From positions 480,001 through 512,000 of the forward strand of contig OY970170.1 of the NCBI GenBank assembly GCA_963706795.1: a stretch of DNA of 32,000 bases, read 5' to 3'. Positions 1,757 through 31,915 of the stretch are shown piece by piece. The notes beneath the pieces are model-generated. The model saw only the letters and a program-made list of their open reading frames with translations. It did no database searches and was not told the origin of the DNA. The position numbers were made by a program, and so were the translations under genes. Each line of letters begins with the position of its first letter. The first letter of the stretch is position 1. Source of the DNA: Candidatus Saccharimonadota bacterium. Its GTDB lineage: Bacteria; Patescibacteriota; Gracilibacteria; BD1-5; UBA2023.

Positions 1757-1810
1757 AATCTGATCTACACCAACTTCAGCATTGTCTGTATGATCAACAA
1801 TCTATAAAAT

Positions 1811-1838
1811 AAAGCCCATCCTTATTCGGATGGGCTTT
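1811..1838. terminator. Bidirectional rho-independent terminator hairpin
   Basis: AAAGCCCATCC-TTATTC-GGATGGGCTTT is flanked by an A-rich 5' side and a T-rich 3' side. On the minus strand it is followed by TTTATTTTAT. Confidence 0.6.
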
Positions 1839-1866
1839 TACTTATAACAGAAGTAGTCTCTAGGAA

Positions 1867-1990
1867 TTCTTCAAAAACGATGGGATTTGTATGAAGACTG
1901 CCGCTAGCGCCCCCTATTGTGAGGTTACCGGAGTGCGGTGTAGCAGTGCTACACCAAACGAGGAAACGCAAAGCCTGAACACGAAGATCG
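1867..1990 (-). repeat. Copy A of a conserved structured intergenic element (candidate complex terminator or 3'UTR RNA); strand is tentative
   Basis: Aligns to 28639-28738 by eye. Shared blocks are TTCTTSAAAAACGATGRGATTTG, TACCGGAGTG, a GYGTAGC/GCTACRC hairpin and AACGAGGAA. It starts 7 nt after the secY stop, and the minus-strand reading ends in CGTTTTT. Confidence 0.5.
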
Positions 1991-1997
1991 AAGCTAT

Positions 1998-3326
1998 TTA
2001 GTAGAACTTCTTGTAGTCGTAACTTTTAAGTTCTGTATCAACGCGGCGGATAAGCTCGAGAACCACTCCGACAACGATGATGAGTCCTGCTCCTGAGATG
2101 AGGAAGTCGATGCGGGCATTTCCGGATACGTCGATGAGACCGAACTGGTTGTTGATCTTGGTGATGATGTATGGGAATACTGCAACGAGTGCGAGGAATG
2201 ATCCTCCGAAGAGATTGAGATGCATGCTCGTCTTTTCGAGGTAGTCGATGGTTTCTTTTCCTGGACGGATACCTGGGATATAACCTCCGCGCTTTTGGAT
2301 AGATTCGGCGATTTCGCTTGGGTTGAAGACGATCGAGATATAGAAGTATGAGAATGCTACGATGAGTGCAAAATATACTCCGATATAGATCCATCCTGGA
2401 TTATTCATTGAGAAGTTCTCAGTGAGGAACTGCCCGAGCTCTGCCATTCGGCCTGCTCCACGAGTCGTGAGAATCTGACCAATAAGCGATGGGAATGTAA
2501 CGATTGAGACTGCGAAGATGATAGGAATCATTCCCGCCTGATTCACGCGAATCGGGAAATATGATCGTTCATCGCGTCCTGTCTTTGTATAGATGAGTGG
2601 AATCTTGCGGTATCCTTCGGTGAACTTAATGATGATGAACATGACGAGGAGTGTCATGATGATGAGTCCAATAAGGAGTCCGAAGTTTCCAACCGTGAGA
2701 TACTGTCCAATGTGCTCTGGAACACCTGCGAGAACACCTGCGAAGATGATCATTGATGAACCATTTCCGATACCTGATTCATTGATGATATCACCGAGCC
2801 AGAGGAGGAGCATTGTACCCGCTGTAATGAAGAGCATCGCAGGAAGTACAACATGGAGGAAGTCCTTTGTATCGATAAGCATTCCTGCATTACCAGTGGC
2901 GCTTCCTACGAGTGTATTGATGAGGATGATCATCCCATAACTCTGAGCAAACGCAAGAGGAAGGGCGAGATACTTCGTGTAATTGTTGATCTTGCGCTGT
3001 CCGAGCTCTCCTTCTTTTTTAAGAGATTCGAGCTGAGGAATAACGACTCCGAGGAGCTGGATGATAATCACCGCATTAATATATGGTGAAAGTCCCATCA
3101 AAACGATCGAGAAGTGCTCAAGTCCACCACCAAGAAGTGATGCAAAGAATGCAAGACCCTGACTTGCTTGAAGGAATTTTTGAAGATTCGCGATAGCATC
3201 AACATTGACTCCAGGAACTGGAATAATTGAGAGGAACTTGTAAACAAGAACGAGACCAATTGTAATGAGGATCTTTTTGCGTACATCTTCTGAATTCCAG
3301 ATGCGGGAAATATTTTTGAGAATCAT
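1998..3326 (-). CDS. secY: Preprotein translocase subunit SecY
   Basis: ORF-track protein with the typical 10-TM SecY sequence, sitting after rplO. I prefer the ATG at 3326 (MILKNISRIWNS...) over the upstream GTG at 3380. The stop is TAA. Confidence 0.93.
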   Translation of the reverse strand: MILKNISRIWNSEDVRKKILITIGLVLVYKFLSIIPVPGVNVDAIANLQKFLQASQGLAFFASLLGGGLEHFSIVLMGLSPYINAVIIIQLLGVVIPQLESLKKEGELGQRKINNYTKYLALPLAFAQSYGMIILINTLVGSATGNAGMLIDTKDFLHVVLPAMLFITAGTMLLLWLGDIINESGIGNGSSMIIFAGVLAGVPEHIGQYLTVGNFGLLIGLIIMTLLVMFIIIKFTEGYRKIPLIYTKTGRDERSYFPIRVNQAGMIPIIFAVSIVTFPSLIGQILTTRGAGRMAELGQFLTENFSMNNPGWIYIGVYFALIVAFSYFYISIVFNPSEIAESIQKRGGYIPGIRPGKETIDYLEKTSMHLNLFGGSFLALVAVFPYIITKINNQFGLIDVSGNARIDFLISGAGLIIVVGVVLELIRRVDTELKSYDYKKFY

Positions 3327-3444
3327 GGGATGAGTAGAATCTGATACAGAGTTAATAGAATATCCAAGCAGATGCGGCACGCATCAACAAGAGATCTGCC
3401 ATTAATTTCCTCTTAGTATAGAGAAAAAGGGGTAAAGTAAATCG

Positions 3445-4561: not shown

Positions 4562-4903
4562 CTAAAAGGAGAGACCAGCTTCGCGAGCAGCATTGGCAAG
4601 AGCCTTGACGCGACCTGCATAGAGGAATCCTCCGCGATCGAATACAACGGACTTGATACCAAGACCAGTAGCAATTTTACCAAGTTCTGTACCTACTGCA
4701 GCAGCAAGTTCAGTCTTAGTCCCCTTTGTGATCTTCATATCAGAAGCAGCACAGAGAGTTTTTCCTGCTACGTCGTCAATGAGTTGAGCGTAGATGGAAG
4801 TATTGCTTCGGTACACCGAAAGACGTGGACGCTCTGCCGTACCAGCAACACGAGCGCGGATGCGTGTATGTCGACGCTGACGTTTGTAAACCTTTTCAAG
4901 CAT
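4562..4903 (-). CDS. rplR: 50S ribosomal protein L18 (uL18)
   Basis: ORF-track protein ...[18 protein letters not shown]...[16 protein letters not shown]... Confidence 0.93.
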
Positions 4904-4933
4904 AATAAGACGGTATAAAGACGATGGTAGCTA

Positions 4934-5488
4934 TTATTTTTTGGCTGCAGTTTTTCCTGCTTTTCGGCGAACGTATTCTCCAACGTAGCGGATTCCCTTA
5001 CCCTTGTATGGTTCAGGTGGCTTGATTTCACGAACGAGAGCCGAGAAGTATCCTACCTGCTGCTTATCAATTCCGGTGATGTGAATAACGTTCTTTTCTT
5101 TCGGGTCGGCAGCTACGGTAACTCCAGCTGGAGCGTCCATGAATACCTTGTGAGAGAAACCAACAGAGAGAGTGATTTTCTGAGGACTTGTGACTTCGAA
5201 TTTGTATCCAACTCCTTGGATTTCGAGTGACTTCTTGTAACCGTCAGATACACCGACTACCATATTGGCAACGAGTGCTCGAGTGAGTCCCCAGAACGCG
5301 CGGTCCTGAGCATTCTCAGGGTCAGCAACCACAACGTGGAGTTCCTGACCTTCGAGATTCACACTTACGGCCTCTTGAAGGGTGAGGGAGAGTTCTCCCT
5401 TTGAGCCCTTTACTGTGATCTTCTTCCCTTCGATTGTTGTGGTTACTCCAGCGGGGAGTACAACGGGAAGCTTTCAGATTCGAGACAT
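4934..5488 (-). CDS. rplF: 50S ribosomal protein L6 (uL6), 184 aa
   Basis: ORF track 4934-5362 extended upstream through TGA 5474-5476. The N-terminus then reads MSRI-G-KLPVVLPAGV, the conserved SRIGK motif with UGA at the Gly. Confidence 0.92.
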
Positions 5489-6691: not shown

Positions 6692-6707
6692 AGGGAGGGT
6701 ATTTTAC

Positions 6708-7013
6708 TTAGGCGAGTTTCTTTCCAGATTTCTTCGCGATGCGGATCTTCTTACCACCTTCGATCTTAAAACCGATTCGTGTGATGAGCTTTGTTTCTGG
6801 ATCGATAGCTGACACGTTTGAAACGTGGATAGCTTTTTCCATTTCAACAATCTGACCAGGAGTCGTTCCTTGTTTCTTGATGTGCTTTTTTACGATGTTG
6901 ACACCTTCGATGAGAACACGCTCTGCTTTTTTGTCGACAGAAAGGACTTTACCTTCCTTGCCTTTATCTTTTCAGGCGATAACTCGTACGATGTCTCAGC
7001 TGTGAATTTTCAT
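6708..7013 (-). CDS. rplX: 50S ribosomal protein L24 (uL24), 101 aa
   Basis: Absent from the standard-code track. Table-25 translation gives MKIHS-G-DIVRVIA-G-KDKGKEGKVLSV..., with TGA at 6996-6998 and 6972-6974 on the two conserved KOW-motif glycines. The stop is TAA 6708-6710. Confidence 0.9.
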
Positions 7014-9262: not shown

Positions 9263-9271
9263 GAGAGGGAA

Positions 9272-9535
9272 TTACTTATTTCCTGAGTGAGAGATGAATC
9301 GTCGAGTGAATGAGAATTCACCAAGCTTGTGACCTACCATATCTTCTGTTACGAAAACTGGAGTGTGTACTTTACCATTGTGAACTCCGAAGGTGTGACC
9401 AACGAATTCTGGGGTAACAGTACAGTCACGTGCCCAAGTACGGATGACGGTCTTTTTTCCAGACTCGTTGAGCTTTGCAACTTTAGCCGCAAGCCTTACA
9501 TCGATATAGGGTCACTTTTTAAGACTACGTGTCAT
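9272..9535 (-). CDS. rpsS: 30S ribosomal protein S19 (uS19), 87 aa
   Basis: Absent from the standard-code track. Table-25 translation gives MTRSLKK-G-PYIDVRL...[29 protein letters not shown], with TGA 9512-9514 at the invariant Gly of the KKGP motif. Confidence 0.92.
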
Positions 9536-10723: not shown

Positions 10724-10732
10724 AAGAGGAAA

Positions 10733-11356
10733 TTACTTGGCGTAATGAGAGAGAATGAGATCAAGTGAGTCCTTCGTGAGAACGAGATCCTTGTACTTGA
10801 GGAGGTCTTTTGGATTGAGGTAGTTAACACCGATAACTTTTACGTTTGGGATGTTACGACCAGCCTGGAATGCTGATGCATCTTCTGGGCGAACTGCGAA
10901 TACTGCAGAAACACTTCCAAGATTTGCGAAGATTTCGATCATATCCTTCGTCTTTACGACGTTAGATGAGATGGACTCGAGAACCTTTACATTTGCAGAC
11001 CCTGCCTTTGCAGAAAGGAGAGAGAAGAGAGCGATACGACGCTCTTTCTTGTTCATGCGAGTTGAGAAGTCACGGTCGTTTCGGGGTCCGAAAGCGATAC
11101 CTCCACCTCGTCGAGTTGGAGAACGTGCGTCACCTACTCGAGCCTGACCAGTACCCTTTTGTGCGTAGAGTTTGCGAGTAGAACCATTTCGTTCTCCGCG
11201 AGTCTTTGTATGAGCGATTGGAGTGCGGGCATTTGCCTGCTGAAGGAGAAGAAGGCGGTGAATAAGTCCTGAATTAACCTCACGACCGAATACGGTAGTA
11301 TCGAGCTTAATTTTTCCAGATTCGAGACCTTTCTCGTTAAAAAGAACTGCTTCCAT
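10733..11356 (-). CDS. rplD: 50S ribosomal protein L4 (uL4)
   Basis: ORF-track protein ...QKGTGQARVGDARSPTRRGGGIAFGP... Confidence 0.93.
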   Translation of the reverse strand: MEAVLFNEKGLESGKIKLDTTVFGREVNSGLIHRLLLLQQANARTPIAHTKTRGERNGSTRKLYAQKGTGQARVGDARSPTRRGGGIAFGPRNDRDFSTRMNKKERRIALFSLLSAKAGSANVKVLESISSNVVKTKDMIEIFANLGSVSAVFAVRPEDASAFQAGRNIPNVKVIGVNYLNPKDLLKYKDLVLTKDSLDLILSHYAK

Positions 11357-24134: not shown

Positions 24135-24190
24135 CATTCTTCGCTGTAATGTATGGCGTGCCATTCAAAGCTCCTTAGGAGCGAAGAATG
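24135..24190 (-). other. Branched stem-loop directly abutting the tRNA-Leu 3' end (trailer or processing structure)
   Basis: An 11-bp closing helix CATTCTTCGCT/AGCGAAGAATG encloses two small hairpins (ATGG-CGTG-CCAT and CTCC-TTA-GGAG). The helix includes the complement of the encoded CCA. Confidence 0.35.
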
Positions 24191-24273
24191 GTGCCCCGGA
24201 CGGGGATCGAACCCGTGCTCCCGAAGGAACAGGATTTTAAGTCCTGCGTGTCTACCAATTCCACCACCGGGGC
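24189..24273 (-). tRNA. tRNA-Leu(UAA), type II with a long variable arm and encoded CCA
   Basis: I folded the cloverleaf manually: acceptor GCCCCGG/CCGGGGC, anticodon loop CTTAAAA, T-loop GGTTCGATCC. Confidence 0.9.
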
Positions 24274-24283
24274 GAGAGGATTC

Positions 24284-24481
24284 TTAGAGGATACCCTTTT
24301 TCTTGAGGGTCTTGATAGCGCTCGCAGCGAGGCGGAGGCGGTATGTGATACCTGTTTCTGGATCCTTAACATTTCTCCAGAAGAGGTTTGGGTAGAACTT
24401 TCGTTTTGTGCGTCGAACGGAGTGCGAAACGCTGTTTCCAACGCCAGTTCGCTTACCCGTGAGCATGCAGACTCGAGACAT
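24284..24481 (-). CDS. rpmB: 50S ribosomal protein L28 (bL28)
   Basis: ORF-track protein MSRVCMLTGKRTGVGNSVSHS.RRTKRKFYPNL... Confidence 0.9.
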   Translation of the reverse strand: MSRVCMLTGKRTGVGNSVSHSVRRTKRKFYPNLFWRNVKDPETGITYRLRLAASAIKTLKKKGIL

Positions 24482-24486
24482 ATCTA

Positions 24487-24804
24487 TTAGATGAGTTTAA
24501 TATCAACACCAACACCAGCAGGGATATTAATCGACTGAAGGAGTTCTTTTGTTTTGTCAGTAGGCGACTCAATATCGATGAGACGCTTGTGACGACGAAT
24601 TTCAAACTGTTCTCGAGCATCCTTGTTTACGAAGGTAGATCGATTGAGAGTGATTTTTTCAATCTTTGTTGGGAGTGGGATTGGACCGACGACAACTGCG
24701 CCTGAATCCTTTGCGGTCATAACGATCTTTTTTACTGCCTCGTCAATGAGCTTGTGCTCAAATGCGCGGACAACAATTCGAAGACTACCTTTTTTTGCGG
24801 ACAT
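24487..24804 (-). CDS. rpsJ: 30S ribosomal protein S10 (uS10)
   Basis: ORF-track protein ...LRIVVRAFEHKLIDEAVKKIV...GPIPLPTK...RRHKRLIDI... Confidence 0.93.
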   Translation of the reverse strand: MSAKKGSLRIVVRAFEHKLIDEAVKKIVMTAKDSGAVVVGPIPLPTKIEKITLNRSTFVNKDAREQFEIRRHKRLIDIESPTDKTKELLQSINIPAGVGVDIKLI

Positions 24805-24838
24805 GGATGAAAGAAAAAAATATTTCTAGCTTTCTTAA

Positions 24839-24870
24839 CTCGAGCGAGCGAGTTGCTCGGCTCGCTCGAG
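24839..24870 (-). other. GC-rich palindromic hairpin between tuf and rpsJ
   Basis: CTCGAGCGAGC-GAGTTGCTCG-GCTCGCTCGAG, with 11-bp perfect arms that can extend to about 14 bp. There is no adjacent U-tract. Confidence 0.5.
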
Positions 24871-24888
24871 ATGGAGAAAGCGAGAAAA

Positions 24889-26082
24889 CTAAGCAACGAC
24901 CTTAGCTACAACTCCTGAACCAACGGTTCGACCTCCTTCGCGGATCGCGAATCGGAGACCCTGGTCCATAGCGATTGGCTGACCAAGTTCGATAACCATC
25001 TTGATGTTATCACCTGGCATAACCATTTCTACTCCTTCTGGAAGCTCAATTGCTCCTGTAACGTCAGTAGTTCGGAAGTAGAACTGTGGCTTGTACCCCT
25101 TAAAGAATGGAGTGTGGCGTCCACCTTCGTCCTTTGTGAGAACGTAAACTTCAGCTTCGAACTTAGTATGTGGCTTGATTGATCCTGGCTTCGCGAGAAC
25201 CTGTCCTCGTTCAACCTGCTCACGTTCAATACCTCGGAGGAGGAGACCAGCGTTGTCACCAGCCTGACCCTGATCGAGCTGCTTGTGGAACATTTCAACT
25301 CCTGTAACGATTGTCTTCTGAGTATCGTGGAGACCGATGATTTCGATTTCTTCACCTACCTTGATGACACCCTGTTCGATCTTACCTGTAACTACAGTAC
25401 CTCGACCCTTGATTGAGAATACGTCCTCAACTGGCATAATGAATGGCTTGTCGAGTGCACGCTCAGGAACTGGAACGTAAGCTTCGATAGCATCGAAGAG
25501 CTCGATGATAGTCTTTGCTCCGTATGCCTTGTCCATATCAGTAGGATTCTCGAGAGCAACGAGTCCAGATCCGCGGATTACTGGAGTGTCATCACCTGGG
25601 AAGTCGTACTTAGAGAGAAGATCTCGGATTTCCATTTCGACGAGGTCGAGCATTTCTGCATCATCGACCATGTCACACTTGTTCATGAATACAACGATGT
25701 ATGGAACACCTACCTGACGAGCGAGGAGGATGTGCTCTCGAGTCTGAGCCATTGGTCCGTCAGTTGCAGCAACGATAAGGATCGCAGCGTCCATCTGAGC
25801 AGCACCAGTAATCATGTTCTTAACGTAGTCCGCATGACCAGGACAGTCAACGTGAGCGTAGTGACGTGTACCAGTCTCGTACTCGATATGAGCAGTGTTG
25901 ATTGTAATTCCGCGTGCCTTTTCTTCTGGAGCAGCGTCAATCTGATCGAAGTTGAACTTAGTACCTCCGTACTTACTAGAGAGAACGCTAGAAATAGCGG
26001 CTGTAGTAGTAGTTTTACCGTGGTCAACGTGTCCGATTGTACCAATATTTACATGTGGTTTTGAACGATCGTATGTAGCCAT
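24889..26082 (-). CDS. tuf: Elongation factor Tu
   Basis: ORF-track protein of 397 aa with [14 protein letters not shown] and NKCD motifs. It has no in-frame TGA. Confidence 0.97.
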
Positions 26083-26149
26083 TTTGAAAAAATTAAATGG
26101 AAAATTAAAGTGTCGTAATGATAGCGAAAAACTCGAAATTGCAAACGTT

Positions 26150-26245
26150 TTATTTCTTCTTCGTCTTAGTTTTGCGCATTTTCTTCGTGATGCGATCCAT
26201 TGCGCGCTTGAGTTTTTTGTGCGCGTGCGTCGTGAGTCGAGGCAT
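26150..26245 (-). CDS. 31-aa highly basic ORF, possibly the displaced C-terminal segment of bS20
   Basis: [31 protein letters not shown]. Its ATG overlaps the stop region of the upstream ORF (TAAATATG). It resembles the A-A-R-x-K-S-R-L tail of S20. Confidence 0.3.
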
Positions 26246-26247
26246 AT

Positions 26248-26460
26248 TTAGATCTTATTAGGATTAATCGAGTATTTTTTGAATTTCTTCATAACAAATT
26301 CAAAAGCGTTCTTGATCCAAAGAGTTTCACCTTCAAAGGCAAGACGAGCTTGGAGCTGCTTGTAGTGCTTGATTGTATTTTCTAGTTTCTTCCCAGATTT
26401 GCGTCCTTTTCGGTTAACCGAATAGACATTCTGGCGAGGTCACTTATTTCTGAGTCCCAT
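26248..26460 (-). CDS. 70-aa basic protein, tentatively ribosomal protein bS20-like (N-terminal and central part)
   Basis: MGLRNK-G-PRQNVYSVNRKGRKSGKKLENTIKHYKQ...KNAFEFVMKKFKKYSINPNKI, with one in-frame TGA at 26440-26442. The spacing of RQ, RKS, TIK, AF and I..NK resembles S20. This is judged by eye only. Confidence 0.35.
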
Positions 26461-26486
26461 AAAGGCGAATTACCAAGTATCAAGTA

Positions 26487-26524
26487 CAAAATACGAAAAC
26501 AGTGTACGAACTTTGTGTTTCGTA
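26487..26524 (-). terminator. Putative terminator after tRNA-Ala
   Basis: The minus strand reads TACGAAACA-...-TGTTTTCGTA (9 bp with one bulge) followed by TTTTG. Confidence 0.4.
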
Positions 26525-26545
26525 ACTGGTAGCTAACACTTCGAA

Positions 26546-26622
26546 TGGTGGAGCCTAAGGGAGTCGAACCCTTGACCTCCTGCGTGCAAAACAGGCGCTC
26601 TAGCCAACTGAGCTAAGGCCCC
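26546..26622 (-). tRNA. tRNA-Ala(UGC) with encoded CCA
   Basis: I folded the cloverleaf manually. It has the G3:U70 identity pair, anticodon loop TTTGCAC and T-loop GGTTCGACTCC. Confidence 0.92.
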
Positions 26623-26653
26623 ACAAGAATGAATAACTTACTTCCAAAATGAA

Positions 26654-26730
26654 TGGCGGAGCTGACGAGGTTCGAACTCGCGACCTTCCGCGTGACAGGC
26701 GGACGCTCTAACCAACTGAGCTACAGCTCC
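26654..26730 (-). tRNA. tRNA-Asp(GUC) with encoded CCA
   Basis: I folded the cloverleaf manually: acceptor GGAGCTG/CAGCTCC, anticodon loop CTGTCAC. Confidence 0.92.
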
Positions 26731-26745
26731 AAAAAGAGCCCGCGA

Positions 26746-26773
26746 AGTATATGGTTTTTGGATTTTCATGCAA
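26746..26773 (-). promoter_or_regulatory. Sigma70-type promoter for the tRNA-Asp/tRNA-Ala unit
   Basis: The minus strand reads TTGCAT (26773-26768), a 16-nt spacer, then TATACT (26751-26746), about 15 nt upstream of the tRNA-Asp 5' end. Confidence 0.55.
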
Positions 26774-26817
26774 ATTTTTTTACGCGGAAAATCACACTTT
26801 GTATCAAAGGCTCTCTT

Positions 26818-27729
26818 TTAGCCCTTCTGTTTGACGAATCTGTAGGATGACACGAGCCCACTGAATGCTCAAAGGAAAAGCAAAAGTCCGGACAAGATGA
26901 CGTAACGCTCAGTGACACTCCCAAAAAATTGATCGATGAAAATCGGTGCTGCAAGCAAAATCGAAAAATCCATATTCTTAAGCAAGATCACAAAGACGAT
27001 CGTACTAACAATCAGTGCAGACCCCGTATATATAAGCCCCTGGAGCACAAATGGGCCATATATATATCGCTTCTGTCCGCCAACGAGTTCGGTGATCTTG
27101 ATTTCTTCGCGGAAATAAAAGACCGCATTACCGATACTCTGGAATACCACTACAAAGACTGAGAAGAGAAAAAAACCAATGATGGCAAAAAGTCCGTACT
27201 GGAGCGAGACCAGAATATGCACCACATCTCTAATGCGATCGTACTGAGCCTTGTAATCCAAGAACGACTTTTTGCGTTTATCGTCAGCAATATCAATGGT
27301 ATTTGTGTGCTCCGAAATGACCCGATCGAGGTCGGCATAATTTTCGATCGGGACATTTTTGATGGAGATCGTACTCGGAAGCGGGTTTTCGGAGTCATTC
27401 TCTATAACTTTTGCGAGATCAGGGTCACGTTTTTTAAGGATCTCGAAGGCATCGGCAGCCGAGATGAATTTTGTATCTATATTCGGACTGACCGTACGGA
27501 GCGCTTCAAGTGTATCAATAACCTCTCTGCTCGTACTTGTAAGCCCCGATTTGGTGCTCACGGTAAGTGAGAGTCGCGCATTAACGTTCTCTGCAAGCGA
27601 CTTCGTCACGAACTCCGCAAAAAAGAGCACGAAGATCAAGAAGGTCATGAGTGTAATAACCACGACCGATGAAAGCGAGAGGAAGAAGCTTCGAAAAATA
27701 TTTTTGAGCGCGTAGCGTAAGAGTCGCAT
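26818..27729 (-). CDS. ftsX: Cell-division ABC transporter permease FtsX-like, 303 aa
   Basis: ORF 26869-27729 extended through TGA 26869-26871 to TAA 26818-26820. It has an N-terminal TM, an extracytoplasmic domain with ...ENPLPSTISIKNV..., and three C-terminal TM segments. Confidence 0.8.
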
Positions 27730-27787
27730 GGAAATCTAATCTATTGAATGATGTCTAGAGTGTATGAGAAGTCGCCAGAATGAAAAA

Positions 27788-28143
27788 TTAAAAACCGCTC
27801 TGGAGCTCGACCATTTCGTAATATGTACCCTTATTGGCAAGGGGTTCGCTGTGCTGGCCGCCCGAGAGACGGATTCATCGTTCGCCGATTTCGGTCTCAA
27901 GTCCATGAGGTGAGATTTTCGTGGATAGTGCCGTCAAAGACCGAAGGATCTTGAGTGAGATAGCCGATTTTTGAGAAGTAGGTCTTTCTGGCTATCTGAG
28001 TCATATCCTGAGAGGATCTTCATGAGCGTGGTCTTCCCACTTCCAGAAGCACCGACAAGGGCAATCTAGCGACCTCATGGGAAATCCTTTAGTGGTGTCA
28101 GAAATCGTTTTGCGTCAGACAAAAATGAGGAGGATTTTTCCAT
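27788..28143 (-). pseudogene. Decayed remnant of an ABCB/MsbA-type exporter ATPase domain
   Basis: Three different frames carry consecutive NBD pieces: Walker A IALVGASGSGKTTLMKILSG (28027-28053), preceded by an in-frame TAG (28066-28068); KIGYLTQDPSVFDGTIHENL; and GLETEIGERGIRLSGGQ (27854-27868), fused directly to the C-terminal ...NKGTYYEMVELQSGF*. The Walker B, D-loop and H-loop regions and the whole TM domain are missing. Confidence 0.75.
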
Positions 28144-28231
28144 GTGACGGGGATTAAAAAACGGTTCGCGGAGTATAGAGACGATTTTTAGAACGCAAAA
28201 AGAAAAAATGCAGAAATATATTTTTAAGCAT

Positions 28232-28268
28232 AAAAAAAACCTCCTTCGCCTTGGGAGCTTTGGAGGAG
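28232..28268 (-). terminator. Rho-independent terminator after rpmA
   Basis: The minus strand reads CCTCC...GGAGG enclosing AAAGCTCCCAAGGCGAA, followed by TTTTTTTT. It starts 6 nt after the rpmA stop. Confidence 0.6.
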
Positions 28269-28273
28269 TTTAA

Positions 28274-28555
28274 TTATGCTGGAGTAACAACATTAATGTA
28301 CATATCGCGGTATACACGACCATCGAAGCGAACTCGACGTTTTTCTTCAAAGTGAACGACACCATCCGCAGTAGCGAAGAGAGTGAAGTCGACACCCTGA
28401 GAAACATTTGCACCTGGCCAGAACTTATTTCCTTTCTGACGGATGATGATGTTACCAGAGAGTGCTGGTTGTCCTCCGAAGATTTTCACTCCGAGACGTT
28501 TTGCATTGGAATCACGACCGTTCGTGGTGGATCCTTGCGCCTTTTTATGAGCCAT
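28274..28555 (-). CDS. rpmA: 50S ribosomal protein L27 (bL27)
   Basis: ORF-track protein [28 protein letters not shown]... Confidence 0.93.
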
Positions 28556-28583
28556 TTTGGGTAAAAGTAAGTTCTAGTTGATG

Positions 28584-28611
28584 AGTATATCCAGAGTTTG
28601 TTTCTTGGAAA
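28584..28611 (-). promoter_or_regulatory. Possible promoter for rpmA
   Basis: The minus strand reads TTTCCA (28611-28606), a 16-nt spacer, then TATACT (28589-28584), about 28 nt upstream of the rpmA ATG and downstream of repeat copy B. Confidence 0.35.
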
Positions 28612-28638
28612 CTCCCATCCTAGGAGCTTCCCGTAAAC

Positions 28639-28738
28639 TTCTTGAAAAACGATGAGATTTGCGTGAAAGACGAGTACCGGAGTGAGGCGTAGCAGAAGCT
28701 ACGTTGAACGAGGAACAGAGTCTTGAACGCAAAGATCG
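28639..28738 (-). repeat. Copy B of the conserved structured intergenic element (candidate complex terminator or 3'UTR RNA); strand is tentative
   Basis: Aligns to 1867-1990. It begins 14 nt after the rpsG stop. The outer helix CGAT...TTTGCGT / ACGCAAA...ATCG encloses an AAGAC/GTCTT helix and the hairpin GGCGTAGC-AGAA-GCTACGTT. The minus-strand reading ends in CGTTTTT. Confidence 0.5.
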
Positions 28739-28752
28739 CGTTTTACAAAAGT

Positions 28753-29205
28753 TTACTTATTAGCGAAGCGGGCAAAAGCCTTGTTGGCCTCAGCCATCTT
28801 GTACACTTCGAGCTTCTTCTTTACTGCATTTCCAGTTTCCTGTGATGCTTCGAGAAGTTCGTTAGCAAGGAAGTTTGAGAATTCAGAACCTGATTTAGAA
28901 CGAGCAGAAGCAAGAATCCATCGGATTGCGAGCGCAAGCTGACGCTTAGGCTTTACTTCCTGTGGAACCTGGTAGATTGAACCACCAACTCGCTTAGGAC
29001 GAACTTCGATACGAGGCATAACATTCTCGAGTGCCTTTTCGAAGACTTCCTCTGGATTTGCGTGACCCTTGGTCTTGATAACCTCAAAAGCGTTGGTGAT
29101 GATCTTCATGGCGAGGTACTTCTTTCCCTCTTTCATGACATAGTTCACGAACTTCATGAGCTTTTCATTCTTCATATTGAGCGATACGCTTCCTTTCGTA
29201 CTCAT
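28753..29205 (-). CDS. rpsG: 30S ribosomal protein S7 (uS7)
   Basis: ORF-track protein ...MKEGKKYLAMKI...VRPKRVGGSIYQVP...AEANKAFA.F... Confidence 0.92.
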   Translation of the reverse strand: MSTKGSVSLNMKNEKLMKFVNYVMKEGKKYLAMKIITNAFEVIKTKGHANPEEVFEKALENVMPRIEVRPKRVGGSIYQVPQEVKPKRQLALAIRWILASARSKSGSEFSNFLANELLEASQETGNAVKKKLEVYKMAEANKAFARFANK

Positions 29206-29228
29206 AGTTGAGAGCTAAAATAGTTGAA

Positions 29229-29648
29229 TTATTTCTTTGCCTTAGGCTTCTTTGCTCCGTAGAGAGAGCGGCTTCGTCCACGCTTTTCAACACCCTGTGT
29301 ATCGAGAACTCCTCGAACGATATGGTATCGAACTCCTGGAAGATCCTTCGCACGTCCTCCACGAACGAGAACTACCGAGTGTTCCTGAAGGTTGTGACCT
29401 TCTCCACCGATGTAGCAGATAACCTCGTACCCGTTTGTAAGACGAACCTTTGCAACCTTTCGGAGAGCCGAGTTTGGCTTCTTTGGAGTCATAGTGTACA
29501 CCTTTGTACATACACCTCGCTTCTGTGGAGATGCAAGAGCAGTAGTTGTACGCTTGATGCTGTTTCTGCTGAGTTGAAGAGCTGGAGACTTACTCTTGCG
29601 AGCTTTGTCTTTACGAGGCTTTCGGATGAGCTGATTAATCGTTGTCAT
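29229..29648 (-). CDS. rpsL: 30S ribosomal protein S12 (uS12)
   Basis: ORF-track protein [10 protein letters not shown]...[19 protein letters not shown]...[13 protein letters not shown]... Confidence 0.95.
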
Positions 29649-29666
29649 GAGAGATAATATCGGGAA

Positions 29667-30062
29667 TTAACGCTTGGACCACTGAGATGCCTTTCGAGCC
29701 TTGTGGAGACCTGGTTTCTTTCGTTCTACCTTACGAGCATCTCGTGTGAGCATTCCTGCACCACGAAGTGTCTTTCGGAGATCTTCGCTCGATTCTACGA
29801 GGGCGCGAGCAAGACCGTGGGCGATAGCCTGAGCCTGTGCAGATTCACCTCCGCCTTCCACCTTGATATCGAATCGAACACGATCTGTAAGTCCTGCGAC
29901 TTTAATCGGAGCGAAAAGATGTGTGAAAAGGTCACCACGGTGTACATACTCAGTGAGTGGTTTACCGTTGACCGTAGATTCACCTGGTGTAATGAAGAGG
30001 CGAACCTGAGCGACTGCCGACTTTCGGCGTCCTACAGCGTAGAAATACTTGAGAGCTGTCAT
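29667..30062 (-). CDS. rpsI: 30S ribosomal protein S9 (uS9)
   Basis: ORF-track protein ...GRRKSAVAQVRL...TRDAR.VERKK.G..KARK..Q.SKR. Confidence 0.93.
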   Translation of the reverse strand: MTALKYFYAVGRRKSAVAQVRLFITPGESTVNGKPLTEYVHRGDLFTHLFAPIKVAGLTDRVRFDIKVEGGGESAQAQAIAHGLARALVESSEDLRKTLRGAGMLTRDARKVERKKPGLHKARKASQWSKR

Positions 30063-30071
30063 AAAAAGAGA

Positions 30072-30503
30072 CTAGATAGAGAGAGTTTCAGGTTGTTGTG
30101 CAGCATACTGATGTTCAGTACCTACTTCGAGCTTCAGACGTTGAATCATCGTAGAACGGTGAGAGTTCTTTGGGAGCATTCCAGAAACTGCATGGCGAAG
30201 AACCTCAGTAGGCTTTTTAACGCGCATTCGTTCGAGAGGAACTTCCTTGAGACCACCCATGTATTGTGAGTGAGATCGGTAGAGCTTCTGCTCTTCCTTA
30301 GAACCAGTAACCGCAACCTTCCCTGCATTGAGAACTACAACGTAGTCACCATTGTCAACGTGAGGAGCAAAGTCTACTTTATTCTTACCTTTAAGGTACG
30401 TAGCGATCAATGTTGCGAGGCGACCGAGGGTCTTTCCTTCAGCATCGATGATGAACCACTTTCGGGCATCACCTTTGATCTGCTTTGGCATGAGTGTTTT
30501 CAT
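30072..30503 (-). CDS. rplM: 50S ribosomal protein L13 (uL13)
   Basis: ORF-track protein ...KWFIIDAEGKTLGRLAT.IA..L.GK....F.PHVD.GDYVVV.NA... Confidence 0.93.
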   Translation of the reverse strand: MKTLMPKQIKGDARKWFIIDAEGKTLGRLATLIATYLKGKNKVDFAPHVDNGDYVVVLNAGKVAVTGSKEEQKLYRSHSQYMGGLKEVPLERMRVKKPTEVLRHAVSGMLPKNSHRSTMIQRLKLEVGTEHQYAAQQPETLSI

Positions 30504-30509
30504 TGTGCT

Positions 30510-30869
30510 TTATTTAACGAGTTCGAGTTTCACAACTTTTGCAGCATCACCATCACGATACTTGATCGCAGTGATACGAGTAAATCCAGAGGTCTGATCC
30601 TTGAACTTTGGAGCAACATTGTTGAAGAGTTCAACAGAAGCAGCCTTAGTGAAAAGAATAGACATAACCTCACGGATAGCAACCATCTCATTGTCGCTAT
30701 TAGCAACATTTATAAGACGATCGATTTCTCCGACGATAGCATTTGCTTGCTTCTCAGTTGTCGTGATTGACTTGTGAGTGAAGAAGCTCGTCAAAAGATT
30801 GCGAAGCACAGCAGAGCGGTGGTCTTTATCTTTTGTGTGGAATTTTACTTTTTTAACGCGGTGTCGCAT
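30510..30869 (-). CDS. rplQ: 50S ribosomal protein L17 (bL17)
   Basis: ORF-track protein MRHRVKKVKF...HRSAVLRNLLTSFF.H..I.TT.. Confidence 0.9.
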   Translation of the reverse strand: MRHRVKKVKFHTKDKDHRSAVLRNLLTSFFTHKSITTTEKQANAIVGEIDRLINVANSDNEMVAIREVMSILFTKAASVELFNNVAPKFKDQTSGFTRITAIKYRDGDAAKVVKLELVK

Positions 30870-30892
30870 AGTATGGTGATTTTGAAAACTTT

Positions 30893-31873
30893 TTAGTCGT
30901 CTCCGAGGAGTTTGAGTCCACGCTCACGAAGTGCGTCGCGGACTTCTGTCATTGCCTTCTTTCCGAATCCCTTGATCGAAGAGAGCTTTGCTTCTGTACA
31001 CTTTGTAAGCTGCTCGATGGAGAGAATCTCACCATTAACGAGAGCATTGAGTGTACGAGGAGAAAGTCCGATGATTTCAATAGGAGTATAGGTTTCTTTT
31101 TCGAGATCAGCTTTGATTTCTTGTTTTTCTTTTTCGAGGATTTCCTTGATATCTCCGATGAATGAACCTTCTACCTGAAGACCTTCTTCGTTGAAGATTC
31201 CAAAGTAAGAAGTGAGCATGTCACCTGAAAATCTAAGAACTTCTTCAGGAGTCATGATTCCGTTTGTGGCAATAACCATTTCGAGTGCATCGAGATTGGT
31301 CATTTCACCTACACGCTGAGACTTTACTTCGTACTTTACTGAGAGAACTGGAGAGAAGTTTGCATCGATGAGGAGTACATTCACGTCTTCTTCGCGCTCT
31401 TTGAGAACATCAACTCCGAGGTAACCAACTGATTTTTCAACGCGGATACTCATGTCGAGCTCGAATCCATCGCGGTCAATTTCAGTGATATAGAGATCAG
31501 GATTCTGAATCTTTACATTAGAGCTTGCTTTGATGTCCTTTGCGCTAACAACTCCTGCCTTTGATTTTACGATGTGGATCCATTCCATATCAGTTCCGCT
31601 CATAGAAACCACGAGGCCCTTGAGATTGAGGAGGATGTCGAGTACTGAATTCTTGATTCCTGGGATTGTAGAGTATTCGTGACCGATTCCCTTGATCTTA
31701 ACTCCGGTAACTCGGCAGCCTGGGATCGAAGAGAGCATCACCCGACGAAGAGAGTTTCCAATAGTTACGCCGTATCCTGAAGGAAGTGGCTGAACCGTGA
31801 ACTTCGCTTCATGAATACCCGTCGTCTCCTGGAGAATCTTTGGTACGCCGATGAGATTGTGGATGATGTGCAT
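30893..31873 (-). CDS. rpoA: DNA-directed RNA polymerase subunit alpha
   Basis: ORF-track protein ...PLPSGYGVTIGNSLRRVMLSSIPG... with a C-terminal HhH domain ...LSPRTLNAL...I.QL.... I prefer ATG 31873 (MHIIHNL...) to the upstream TTG 31891. Confidence 0.93.
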   Translation of the reverse strand: MHIIHNLIGVPKILQETTGIHEAKFTVQPLPSGYGVTIGNSLRRVMLSSIPGCRVTGVKIKGIGHEYSTIPGIKNSVLDILLNLKGLVVSMSGTDMEWIHIVKSKAGVVSAKDIKASSNVKIQNPDLYITEIDRDGFELDMSIRVEKSVGYLGVDVLKEREEDVNVLLIDANFSPVLSVKYEVKSQRVGEMTNLDALEMVIATNGIMTPEEVLRFSGDMLTSYFGIFNEEGLQVEGSFIGDIKEILEKEKQEIKADLEKETYTPIEIIGLSPRTLNALVNGEILSIEQLTKCTEAKLSSIKGFGKKAMTEVRDALRERGLKLLGDD

Positions 31874-31915
31874 AGAAGAATGATGAGACAAGTAGCAGAG
31901 AGAATGCCCTTGAGA

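Follow-up and report, generated by a model that had tools for sequence, protein, structure and literature searches.

Gene content of the window

The window, the whole stretch of 32,000 nt that was analysed, carries nearly all of its genes on the minus strand. The best matches of its S7 and SecY proteins belong to MAGs named 'Candidatus Gracilibacteria' or 'Patescibacteria group'. The proteins encoded by rpsG (ribosomal protein S7; 28753–29205, minus strand; PF00177) and secY (1998–3329, minus strand; PF00344) are 100% identical to P0001 and P0121, respectively, both of which are borne by one 1.27-Mb contig. One block of genes has the order rpoA, L17, L13, S9, S12, S7, copy B of the element described below, L27, an FtsX-like gene, tRNAs, tuf and S10. 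The L27 gene rpmA (28274–28555, minus strand; PF01016 on the identical contig L026) lies downstream of copy B. The second block runs from L3 to L15, followed by secY, copy A of the element and a canonical terminator hairpin. The gene order within 24189–31891 is unusual: S12–S7 is followed by L27 and not by fusA, and L27 by the FtsX-like gene, tRNA-Asp, tRNA-Ala, a 70-aa ORF, tuf, S10, tRNA-Leu, S16 and a KH protein. About 12 kb separate the L3-to-secY block from S10. Only three ordinary tRNAs were found in the window by ARAGORN, and the only hits of the window at the Rfam 15 gathering thresholds are three tRNA hits.

Codon 5 of rplF (4934–5488, minus strand) is an in-frame TGA that aligns with the conserved Gly of the MSRIGK/MSRIGR motif of solved L6 proteins, which indicates that TGA encodes Gly here (genetic code 25). 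Several long genes of the window would be interrupted if TGA were not a sense codon. Shine-Dalgarno sequences are absent from the 25 nt that precede each of 30 translation genes on the minus strand (for example 9263–9287, 10724–10748 and 6692–6716). These leaders are G-poor and pyrimidine-rich up to the start codon (..TTCCCTCTC ATG, ..TTTCCTCTT ATG, ..ACCCTCCCT ATG).

The secY transcript is ended by a canonical intrinsic terminator (1811–1838, minus strand), whose 11-bp stem precedes the sequence ATTTTAT. This terminator is distinct from the element and is reached about 25 nt beyond copy A (1838–1811). A promoter-like site, TTGTCT-17-TAAAAT (1782–1810, plus strand), points into this hairpin and on into the folding strand of copy A; about one site of this type is expected by chance in the region. 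At the other locus, a promoter-like site TTTCCA-16-TATACT (28584–28611, minus strand) is present between copy B and rpmA, and a 9-bp hairpin (28607–28631, minus strand) is found just downstream of copy B on the operon strand. This hairpin, GGAAGCUCC-UAGGAU-GGGAGUUUCC, has one G·U pair on the operon strand and overlaps the –35 hexamer of the rpmA promoter-like site. The insert of 21 nt that contains it is missing from the orthologous spacers of contigs L008 and L010.

Two copies of a hairpin-forming element

A previous reading of the window, made from the sequence only, had located two related non-coding copies of a structured element, one after rpsG (28639–28738) and one after secY (1867–1990). 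Both sites were correct, and both copies are larger than had been supposed. Copy B, which is intact, spans 28633–28756 (plus strand, 124 nt) and scores 128 bits (E 2.5e-28) with R1, a covariance model of the family. Copy A, a degenerate chimeric copy adjoining the secY stop codon, spans 1860–2000 (plus strand, 85 bits). When the 32-kb window was scanned with R1, only these two copies were retrieved, at 28632–28748 (128 bits) and 1860–2000 (85 bits). Their minus strands, aligned with MAFFT, show 77% column identity and a single indel of about 24 nt, which corresponds to an insert present in copy A only (1900–1924, plus strand), at the junction of its two halves. The conserved blocks have no further occurrence in the window: a search for the 23-nt block CAAATCNCATCGTTTTTNAAGAA that tolerated up to three mismatches gave exactly two matches, against none expected, and CACTCCGGTA matches exactly at copies A and B only. 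The arms of the central hairpin (GGCGTAGC/GCTACGTT versus GGTGTAGC/GCTACACC) and those of the outer helix (TTTGCGT/ACGCAAA versus TTTGTAT/ACACGAA) are as initially quoted.

Copy B forms a single long imperfect hairpin with a minimum free energy of –53.6 kcal/mol and fold z-scores of –6.9 on the plus strand and –4.3 on the minus strand. It consists of helices P0, P1, P1b, P2 and P3, three 2-bp helices, and an 8-bp apical stem capped by an AGAA loop. The hairpin of 124 nt is closed by P0, in which 28633–28644 pairs with 28746–28756; the stop codon of rpsG (28753–28755) is inside the 3′ arm of this helix. The best-conserved central domain (28672–28718, plus strand) comprises invariant or near-invariant columns of alignments A7 and A8. 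It reads GAGUACC-GGA-GU-GA-(stem-loop)-GA-AC-GA-GG-AAC on the plus strand, where its internal loops are purine-rich and include tandem G·A loops.

That the element is non-coding was upheld, as the reading frames differ between the copies and a candidate peptide could be rejected: the ATG in ..CGATGAG.. is replaced by AAG or AAA in L017, L021 and L023, and 1-nt indels in loops shift the frame. Neither copy matches an Rfam family, at the Rfam 15 gathering thresholds or at E ≤ 10, in agreement with the failure of the sequence-only reading to recognize one. Weak sub-threshold hits near copy A are centred on the terminator hairpin 1811–1838, and a few of them reach the first bases of the element.

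The function originally proposed, a large branched intrinsic terminator or a 3′UTR RNA of the operon strand located after the last gene of a transcription unit, fared less well. The position holds for copy A, which is preceded by secY and followed by the canonical terminator, and fails for copy B, as rpmA starts 197 nt downstream. The CGTTTTT thought to follow the closing helix is instead the 3′ arm of helix P1, where it pairs with AAAACG, so that the U-run is engaged within the stem. A short G+C-rich stem-loop followed by an unpaired U-tract is present at neither copy, and a terminator scan found nothing at either copy on either strand. More generally, the element might act in cis as an RNA of the operon strand, as a large terminator or attenuator, a 3′UTR stabilizer against exonucleases or an RNase processing site, which would end or split ribosomal transcription units. 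Copy A is indeed co-transcribed with secY, being located between the stop codon and the canonical terminator; the element always begins at the stop codon of the upstream gene; the operon strand also folds, as seen from its z-score; and promoter-like sites follow the S7–L27 and yidD copies, as if the operon had been split there. REP and ERIC repeats also affect the stability of upstream mRNA (PMC3184786). A role of this kind is nevertheless considered quite unlikely, given the paired U-run, the outcome of the terminator scan, and the distribution and substitution pattern of the family presented below.

Distribution of the element in Gracilibacteria

To gather the family, the S7 and SecY genes were traced into relatives and public genomes and metagenomes were scanned with a degenerate pattern; R1 was built from the hits of both. 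With this model, the element is detected at at least 10 distinct sites in Gracilibacteria contigs. It follows secY (window, L020, L027), yidD (L017, L018), a ybaB-like gene (L021), the L27 gene (L005–L007, L029–L031), ruvC (L005 only) and a gene for a 138-aa protein (L006, L007, L029, L030). It also lies between S7 and L27 (window, L008–L011, L019, L026), between S13 and S11 (L005–L007, L029–L031), between tuf and S10 (L023), and in a spacer between divergent genes (L005, L031). Contig L005 alone contains four full copies and one half copy within 20 kb, the lone half copy being at 1594–1633. The insertions thus abut or overlap the 3′ ends of genes, and some of them are in spacers of core ribosomal operons. 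The orientation relative to the surrounding genes is the same in every copy, including that of the divergent spacer.

No element was found at 12 other Gracilibacteria loci around the same genes, and strict pattern scans of public genomes and metagenomes returned only 2 and 4 loci. As all loci were reached via ribosomal genes or the strict pattern, the apparent preference for ribosomal genes could stem from the sampling. The element had no match among viral contigs, phage records or plasmid records. A census of proteins with C-terminal tails encoded by the element returned nothing, and literature searches for repeats or non-coding RNAs of Gracilibacteria or of the candidate phyla radiation yielded nothing relevant.

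Several copies separate genes that need to be co-expressed (S13–S11, tuf–S10 and S7–L27). Termination at these mid-operon positions would cut off essential genes, which argues against an operon-strand terminator.

Fold of the element and strand specificity

The element is one long hairpin of about 120 nt. In alignment A8, which comprises 19 sequences, 93.5% of the cells form standard pairs, and double-sided changes are observed in 18 of the 33 pairs (89 cells). None of 500 shuffled controls reached the observed pairing, number of double changes or covariation score, and pairing fell to 29–49% when partners were slid by 1–3 columns. The compensatory changes that had been noticed between the two copies of the window are therefore real, and they are strong across the family. 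P0 differs in sequence in nearly every copy while its pairing is kept, as in GTAAACTT/AAGTTTAC, TATGTTT/AAACATA and CAGAAACCT/AGGTTTCTG. Together, P0 and P1 are formed by the ends of all intact copies except that of L010. The consensus of the ends is GAATCTCTG-TAAAACG ... CGTTTTT-CAGAGATTC.

Purines predominate in the internal loops of one strand, where several loops are of the tandem G·A type. Since some lineages have Watson-Crick pairs in place of these loops, what is kept is the rod shape. The unpaired positions, 71% of which are purines, are strongly conserved. Two known motifs were looked for by eye and rejected. A hammerhead does not fit, as the CUGAUGA-like box is not conserved (CGAUGAG in the window, AUGAUGA in lineage G) and no Rfam hit was obtained. 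K-turns do not fit either, as the loops of the minimum free energy fold are 2 × 2 tandem GA loops devoid of 3-nt bulges, with Watson-Crick replacements in some lineages.

The strand that folds better is the plus strand of the window, which is antisense to the host genes. As RNA, this strand is the more stable in 15 of 17 copies, by 4–23 kcal/mol (median about 12), and the RNAalifold consensus is –31 to –32 kcal/mol for it, compared with –19 kcal/mol for the operon strand. At paired positions, leaving out two degenerate copies, 49 G·U cells were counted versus 2 A·C cells, that is 12 versus 2 columns (binomial p = 0.013). The two transition classes are equally frequent at unpaired positions, with 38 versus 39 cells. 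Base composition was therefore rejected as the cause of the G·U asymmetry, since the unpaired sites show no transition bias. Judged from these substitutions, the fold is under selection on the strand antisense to the host genes. Where the folding strand has G·U pairs, the operon strand is left with A·C mismatches, so that its pairing would not be what selection preserves, a further argument against an operon-strand RNA. Four of the five A·C mismatches in alignment A5 belong to copy A. With DNA parameters, the two strands fold about equally well.

The preference for one strand raises the question of an antisense RNA with a function, either as a small rod-shaped regulator in cis of the 3′ ends of highly expressed operons or in trans through its exposed purine-rich loops, the GGAG/GAGGAA loops being complementary to the pyrimidine-rich leaders of a host that lacks Shine-Dalgarno sequences. 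The selection and the greater stability of the fold on that strand would be explained, as would the conserved, mostly purine unpaired nucleotides and the uniform orientation; moreover, the leaders of 30 translation genes are G-poor and of the type ..UUCCUCUU AUG. However, no promoter-like site precedes copy B on the folding strand, no upstream motif is shared across the copies, and no terminator follows the element on that strand. The intact second copy of L027 sits between two bidirectional terminators, some lineages have Watson-Crick pairs in place of the tandem-GA loops, and close relatives lack the element, which thus cannot be essential. A functional antisense RNA is accordingly held to be unlikely. 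The conservation of the purine-rich loops could nonetheless equally indicate a host function.

The relation of the folded strand to replication was also considered. GC3 skew is equal for genes on both strands, and AT3 skew gives a weak hint only. On this weak skew evidence, the folded strand appears to lie on the leading-strand template.

Gain, loss and recombination of copies

Filled and empty sites can be compared between close relatives. The S7–L27 spacer measures about 170–197 nt in the window and in relatives at 97% identity, in which it contains the element and about 40–75 nt more, and 18–28 nt in relatives without the element whose S7 is 89–95% identical. Likewise, the ruvC copy is present in L005 and absent from L006, despite identical S7 proteins. 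This absence from the same spacers in close relatives means that the element is not a fixed part of operon architecture, which again speaks against a cis-acting operon-strand RNA.

Insertion has altered the ends of genes. In L005, the last codons and the stop codon of ruvC are supplied by the element. The RuvC protein there ends (about 2300–2345) in ..QKSL* versus ..QKNGL*, the stop codon being within the element. In L017, no stop codon interrupts the yidD frame ahead of the element, which is read through, so that this YidD (4893–5270) gains an element-encoded tail of about 45 aa. A promoter-like TATACTCATC motif follows the yidD copy of L017.

The origin of copy A could be traced in L027, where secY is followed by a degenerate copy, a terminator, an intact copy and a second terminator in tandem. 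The secY-proximal half of copy A matches the first of these copies almost base for base, and its distal half matches the second; the approximately 155 nt between the L027 copies, terminator included, are missing from copy A (alignment A9). Read from this alignment, copy A arose by recombination between two tandem copies, both of which this close relative still carries. Being a hybrid would account for the low score of copy A, for its mismatches and for the 24-nt insert at its junction. The weakened pairs that had been reported between copies A and B do exist, and some of them are therefore recombination scars.

The copies cluster according to lineage and not to locus. With 86% identity, the S7 copy of L008 is closer to the secY copy of L020 than to the orthologous S7 copies (74–75%), and the copies of lineage G (L005, L006) have their own apical hairpin in common. 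The family is therefore dispersed and multi-copy, is gained and lost at orthologous sites, and comprises lineage-specific subfamilies.

No direct repeat flanks any of 13 copies, and the comparison of filled with empty sites reveals no target-site duplication. A conserved target sequence was not found. The 370 kb examined contain no transposase or autonomous parent element, and no lone element ends flanking a gene.

A separate observation concerns the S7–L27 spacer of L006 (9771–9891), and also of L007, L029 and L030, which holds an unrelated insert of about 75 nt. In L006, this insert contains four GATACCT repeats that are able to pair with the upstream CAGATATC segment. It is missing from L005, although the S7 proteins of L005 and L006 are identical. 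It resembles a second small element of that spacer, either mobile or prone to slippage.

Comparison with known repeats and recombination sites

Definitions of MITE and ERIC were taken from PMC3184786 and that of REPIN from PMC3116915. As in MITEs, which are shorter than 200–400 bp, the element is small (about 120 nt) and non-coding, neither reading frames nor an ATG being conserved; it has terminal inverted repeats, formed by P0 and P1; and it is dispersed over at least 10 sites with insertion polymorphism, the S7–L27 and ruvC sites being filled or empty in close relatives. The target-site duplication of MITEs was not seen. The Correia elements of Neisseria (CREE) and other MITEs are likewise small and non-autonomous, with inverted-repeat ends; they are co-transcribed with their neighbours, can carry or create promoters and alter operon structure, and their insertion differs between strains (PMC3184786). 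In contrast with these, the inverted repeat spans the entire element, and neither a target-site duplication nor a matching insertion sequence was found.

ERIC sequences (IRU) of Enterobacteriaceae, imperfect palindromes of about 127 bp classed with the MITEs, are of similar size, and here too the whole element is one imperfect palindrome. They are located in transcribed intergenic DNA, at the 3′ ends of genes or between cistrons, and their presence varies between related strains (PMC3184786). The present element shares no sequence similarity with ERIC and shows no TA target duplication; its host belongs to the candidate phyla radiation and has a genome of about 1.3 Mb; all copies seen have one orientation; and the wobble signal is strongly specific for one strand. 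Like the present family, ERIC reportedly undergoes internal insertions at particular points and keeps its fold through compensatory changes (Wilson and Sharp, 2006).

REPINs, doublets of REP sequences mobilized by RAYT transposases, are also non-coding hairpins of about 100 nt predicted to form in single-stranded DNA or RNA, are extragenic, and occur as lineage-specific populations (PMC3116915). Recognition of a single strand, as for REPINs, would explain the strand-specific fold. The differences are that the arms of the element are not recognizable short palindromic REPs, that conservation peaks in the centre and not at the ends, that no RAYT is known for the host genomes, and that the copy number is apparently far below hundreds. 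Rho-independent terminators resemble the element in being hairpins at gene ends flanked by an A-run and a T-run. They differ from it in that its stem of about 50 bp has many internal loops, its T-run is paired, it is unmatched in the terminator scan, and it is found within operons and ahead of separate canonical terminators.

The recognized strand of attC sites and Vibrio cholerae repeats (VCR) is the bottom strand, antisense to the cassette gene. The element could similarly be a site in DNA for a recombinase or DNA-binding protein that recognizes a folded single strand. Like attC and VCR, it is an imperfect palindrome that abuts or overlaps a stop codon, in a fixed orientation and with an antisense folding strand; it varies in length close to the apex, copies of one genome resemble each other, and both strands fold as DNA. 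However, the R and L boxes are lacking, as the core motifs RYYYAAC and GTTRRRY are absent from the ends, the neighbours are core housekeeping genes in conserved order and not cassettes, no integrase gene is nearby, and conservation extends along the whole element, unlike in attC. Such a site is therefore regarded as very improbable. An integron attC proper was rejected, as the gene-strand ends GTAAAAC.. and ..CGTTTTTC fit neither consensus.

Discussion

The elements are best explained as a previously undescribed family of non-coding interspersed repeats of about 120 nt, hairpin-forming and akin to MITEs, REPINs or ERIC, in a subset of Gracilibacteria; a probability of roughly 0.6 is assigned to this interpretation. 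The interpretation made from the window alone is partly supported: its two copies, their covariation and their non-coding nature stand, and the refuting condition it had set, a lack of further copies and of significant covariation, came out in its favour, many more copies having been found and covariation being strong; its terminator or 3′UTR RNA does not stand.

It is presumed that new copies of the repeat would be made by a trans-acting enzyme recognizing the single-stranded, folded form of the antisense strand, which would account for the restriction of wobble pairs to one strand and for the single orientation of the copies. Once inserted, the copies would ride passively in host mRNAs in their weaker-folding orientation, and would at most modulate mRNA stability or decouple neighbouring genes. 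The S7–L27 insertion comes with a promoter-like site. The apparent placement of the folded strand on the leading-strand template is contrary to what is predicted for single-strand transposition of the IS200/IS605 type. It is conceivable, and distinctly unlikely, that the elements are new rod-shaped RNAs, encoded antisense at the ends of highly expressed genes and pairing through their conserved GGAG/GAGGAA loops with the pyrimidine-rich leaders, or the substrate of a new single-strand transposition or recombination system acting on the leading-strand template.

For annotators, the repeats are a warning against taking every large conserved hairpin after a ribosomal gene for a regulatory RNA. 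They also provide a marker for strain typing and for assembly errors. The strand-specific covariation makes the family a good case for asking how such repeats get copied, and the family may lead to an unrecognized single-strand enzyme or RNA in Gracilibacteria. To our knowledge, few mobile elements have been described in bacteria of the candidate phyla radiation, with their tiny streamlined genomes. Repeats that colonize the spacers of core ribosomal operons, and sometimes rewrite the last codons of genes, indicate that these genomes are less static than assumed.
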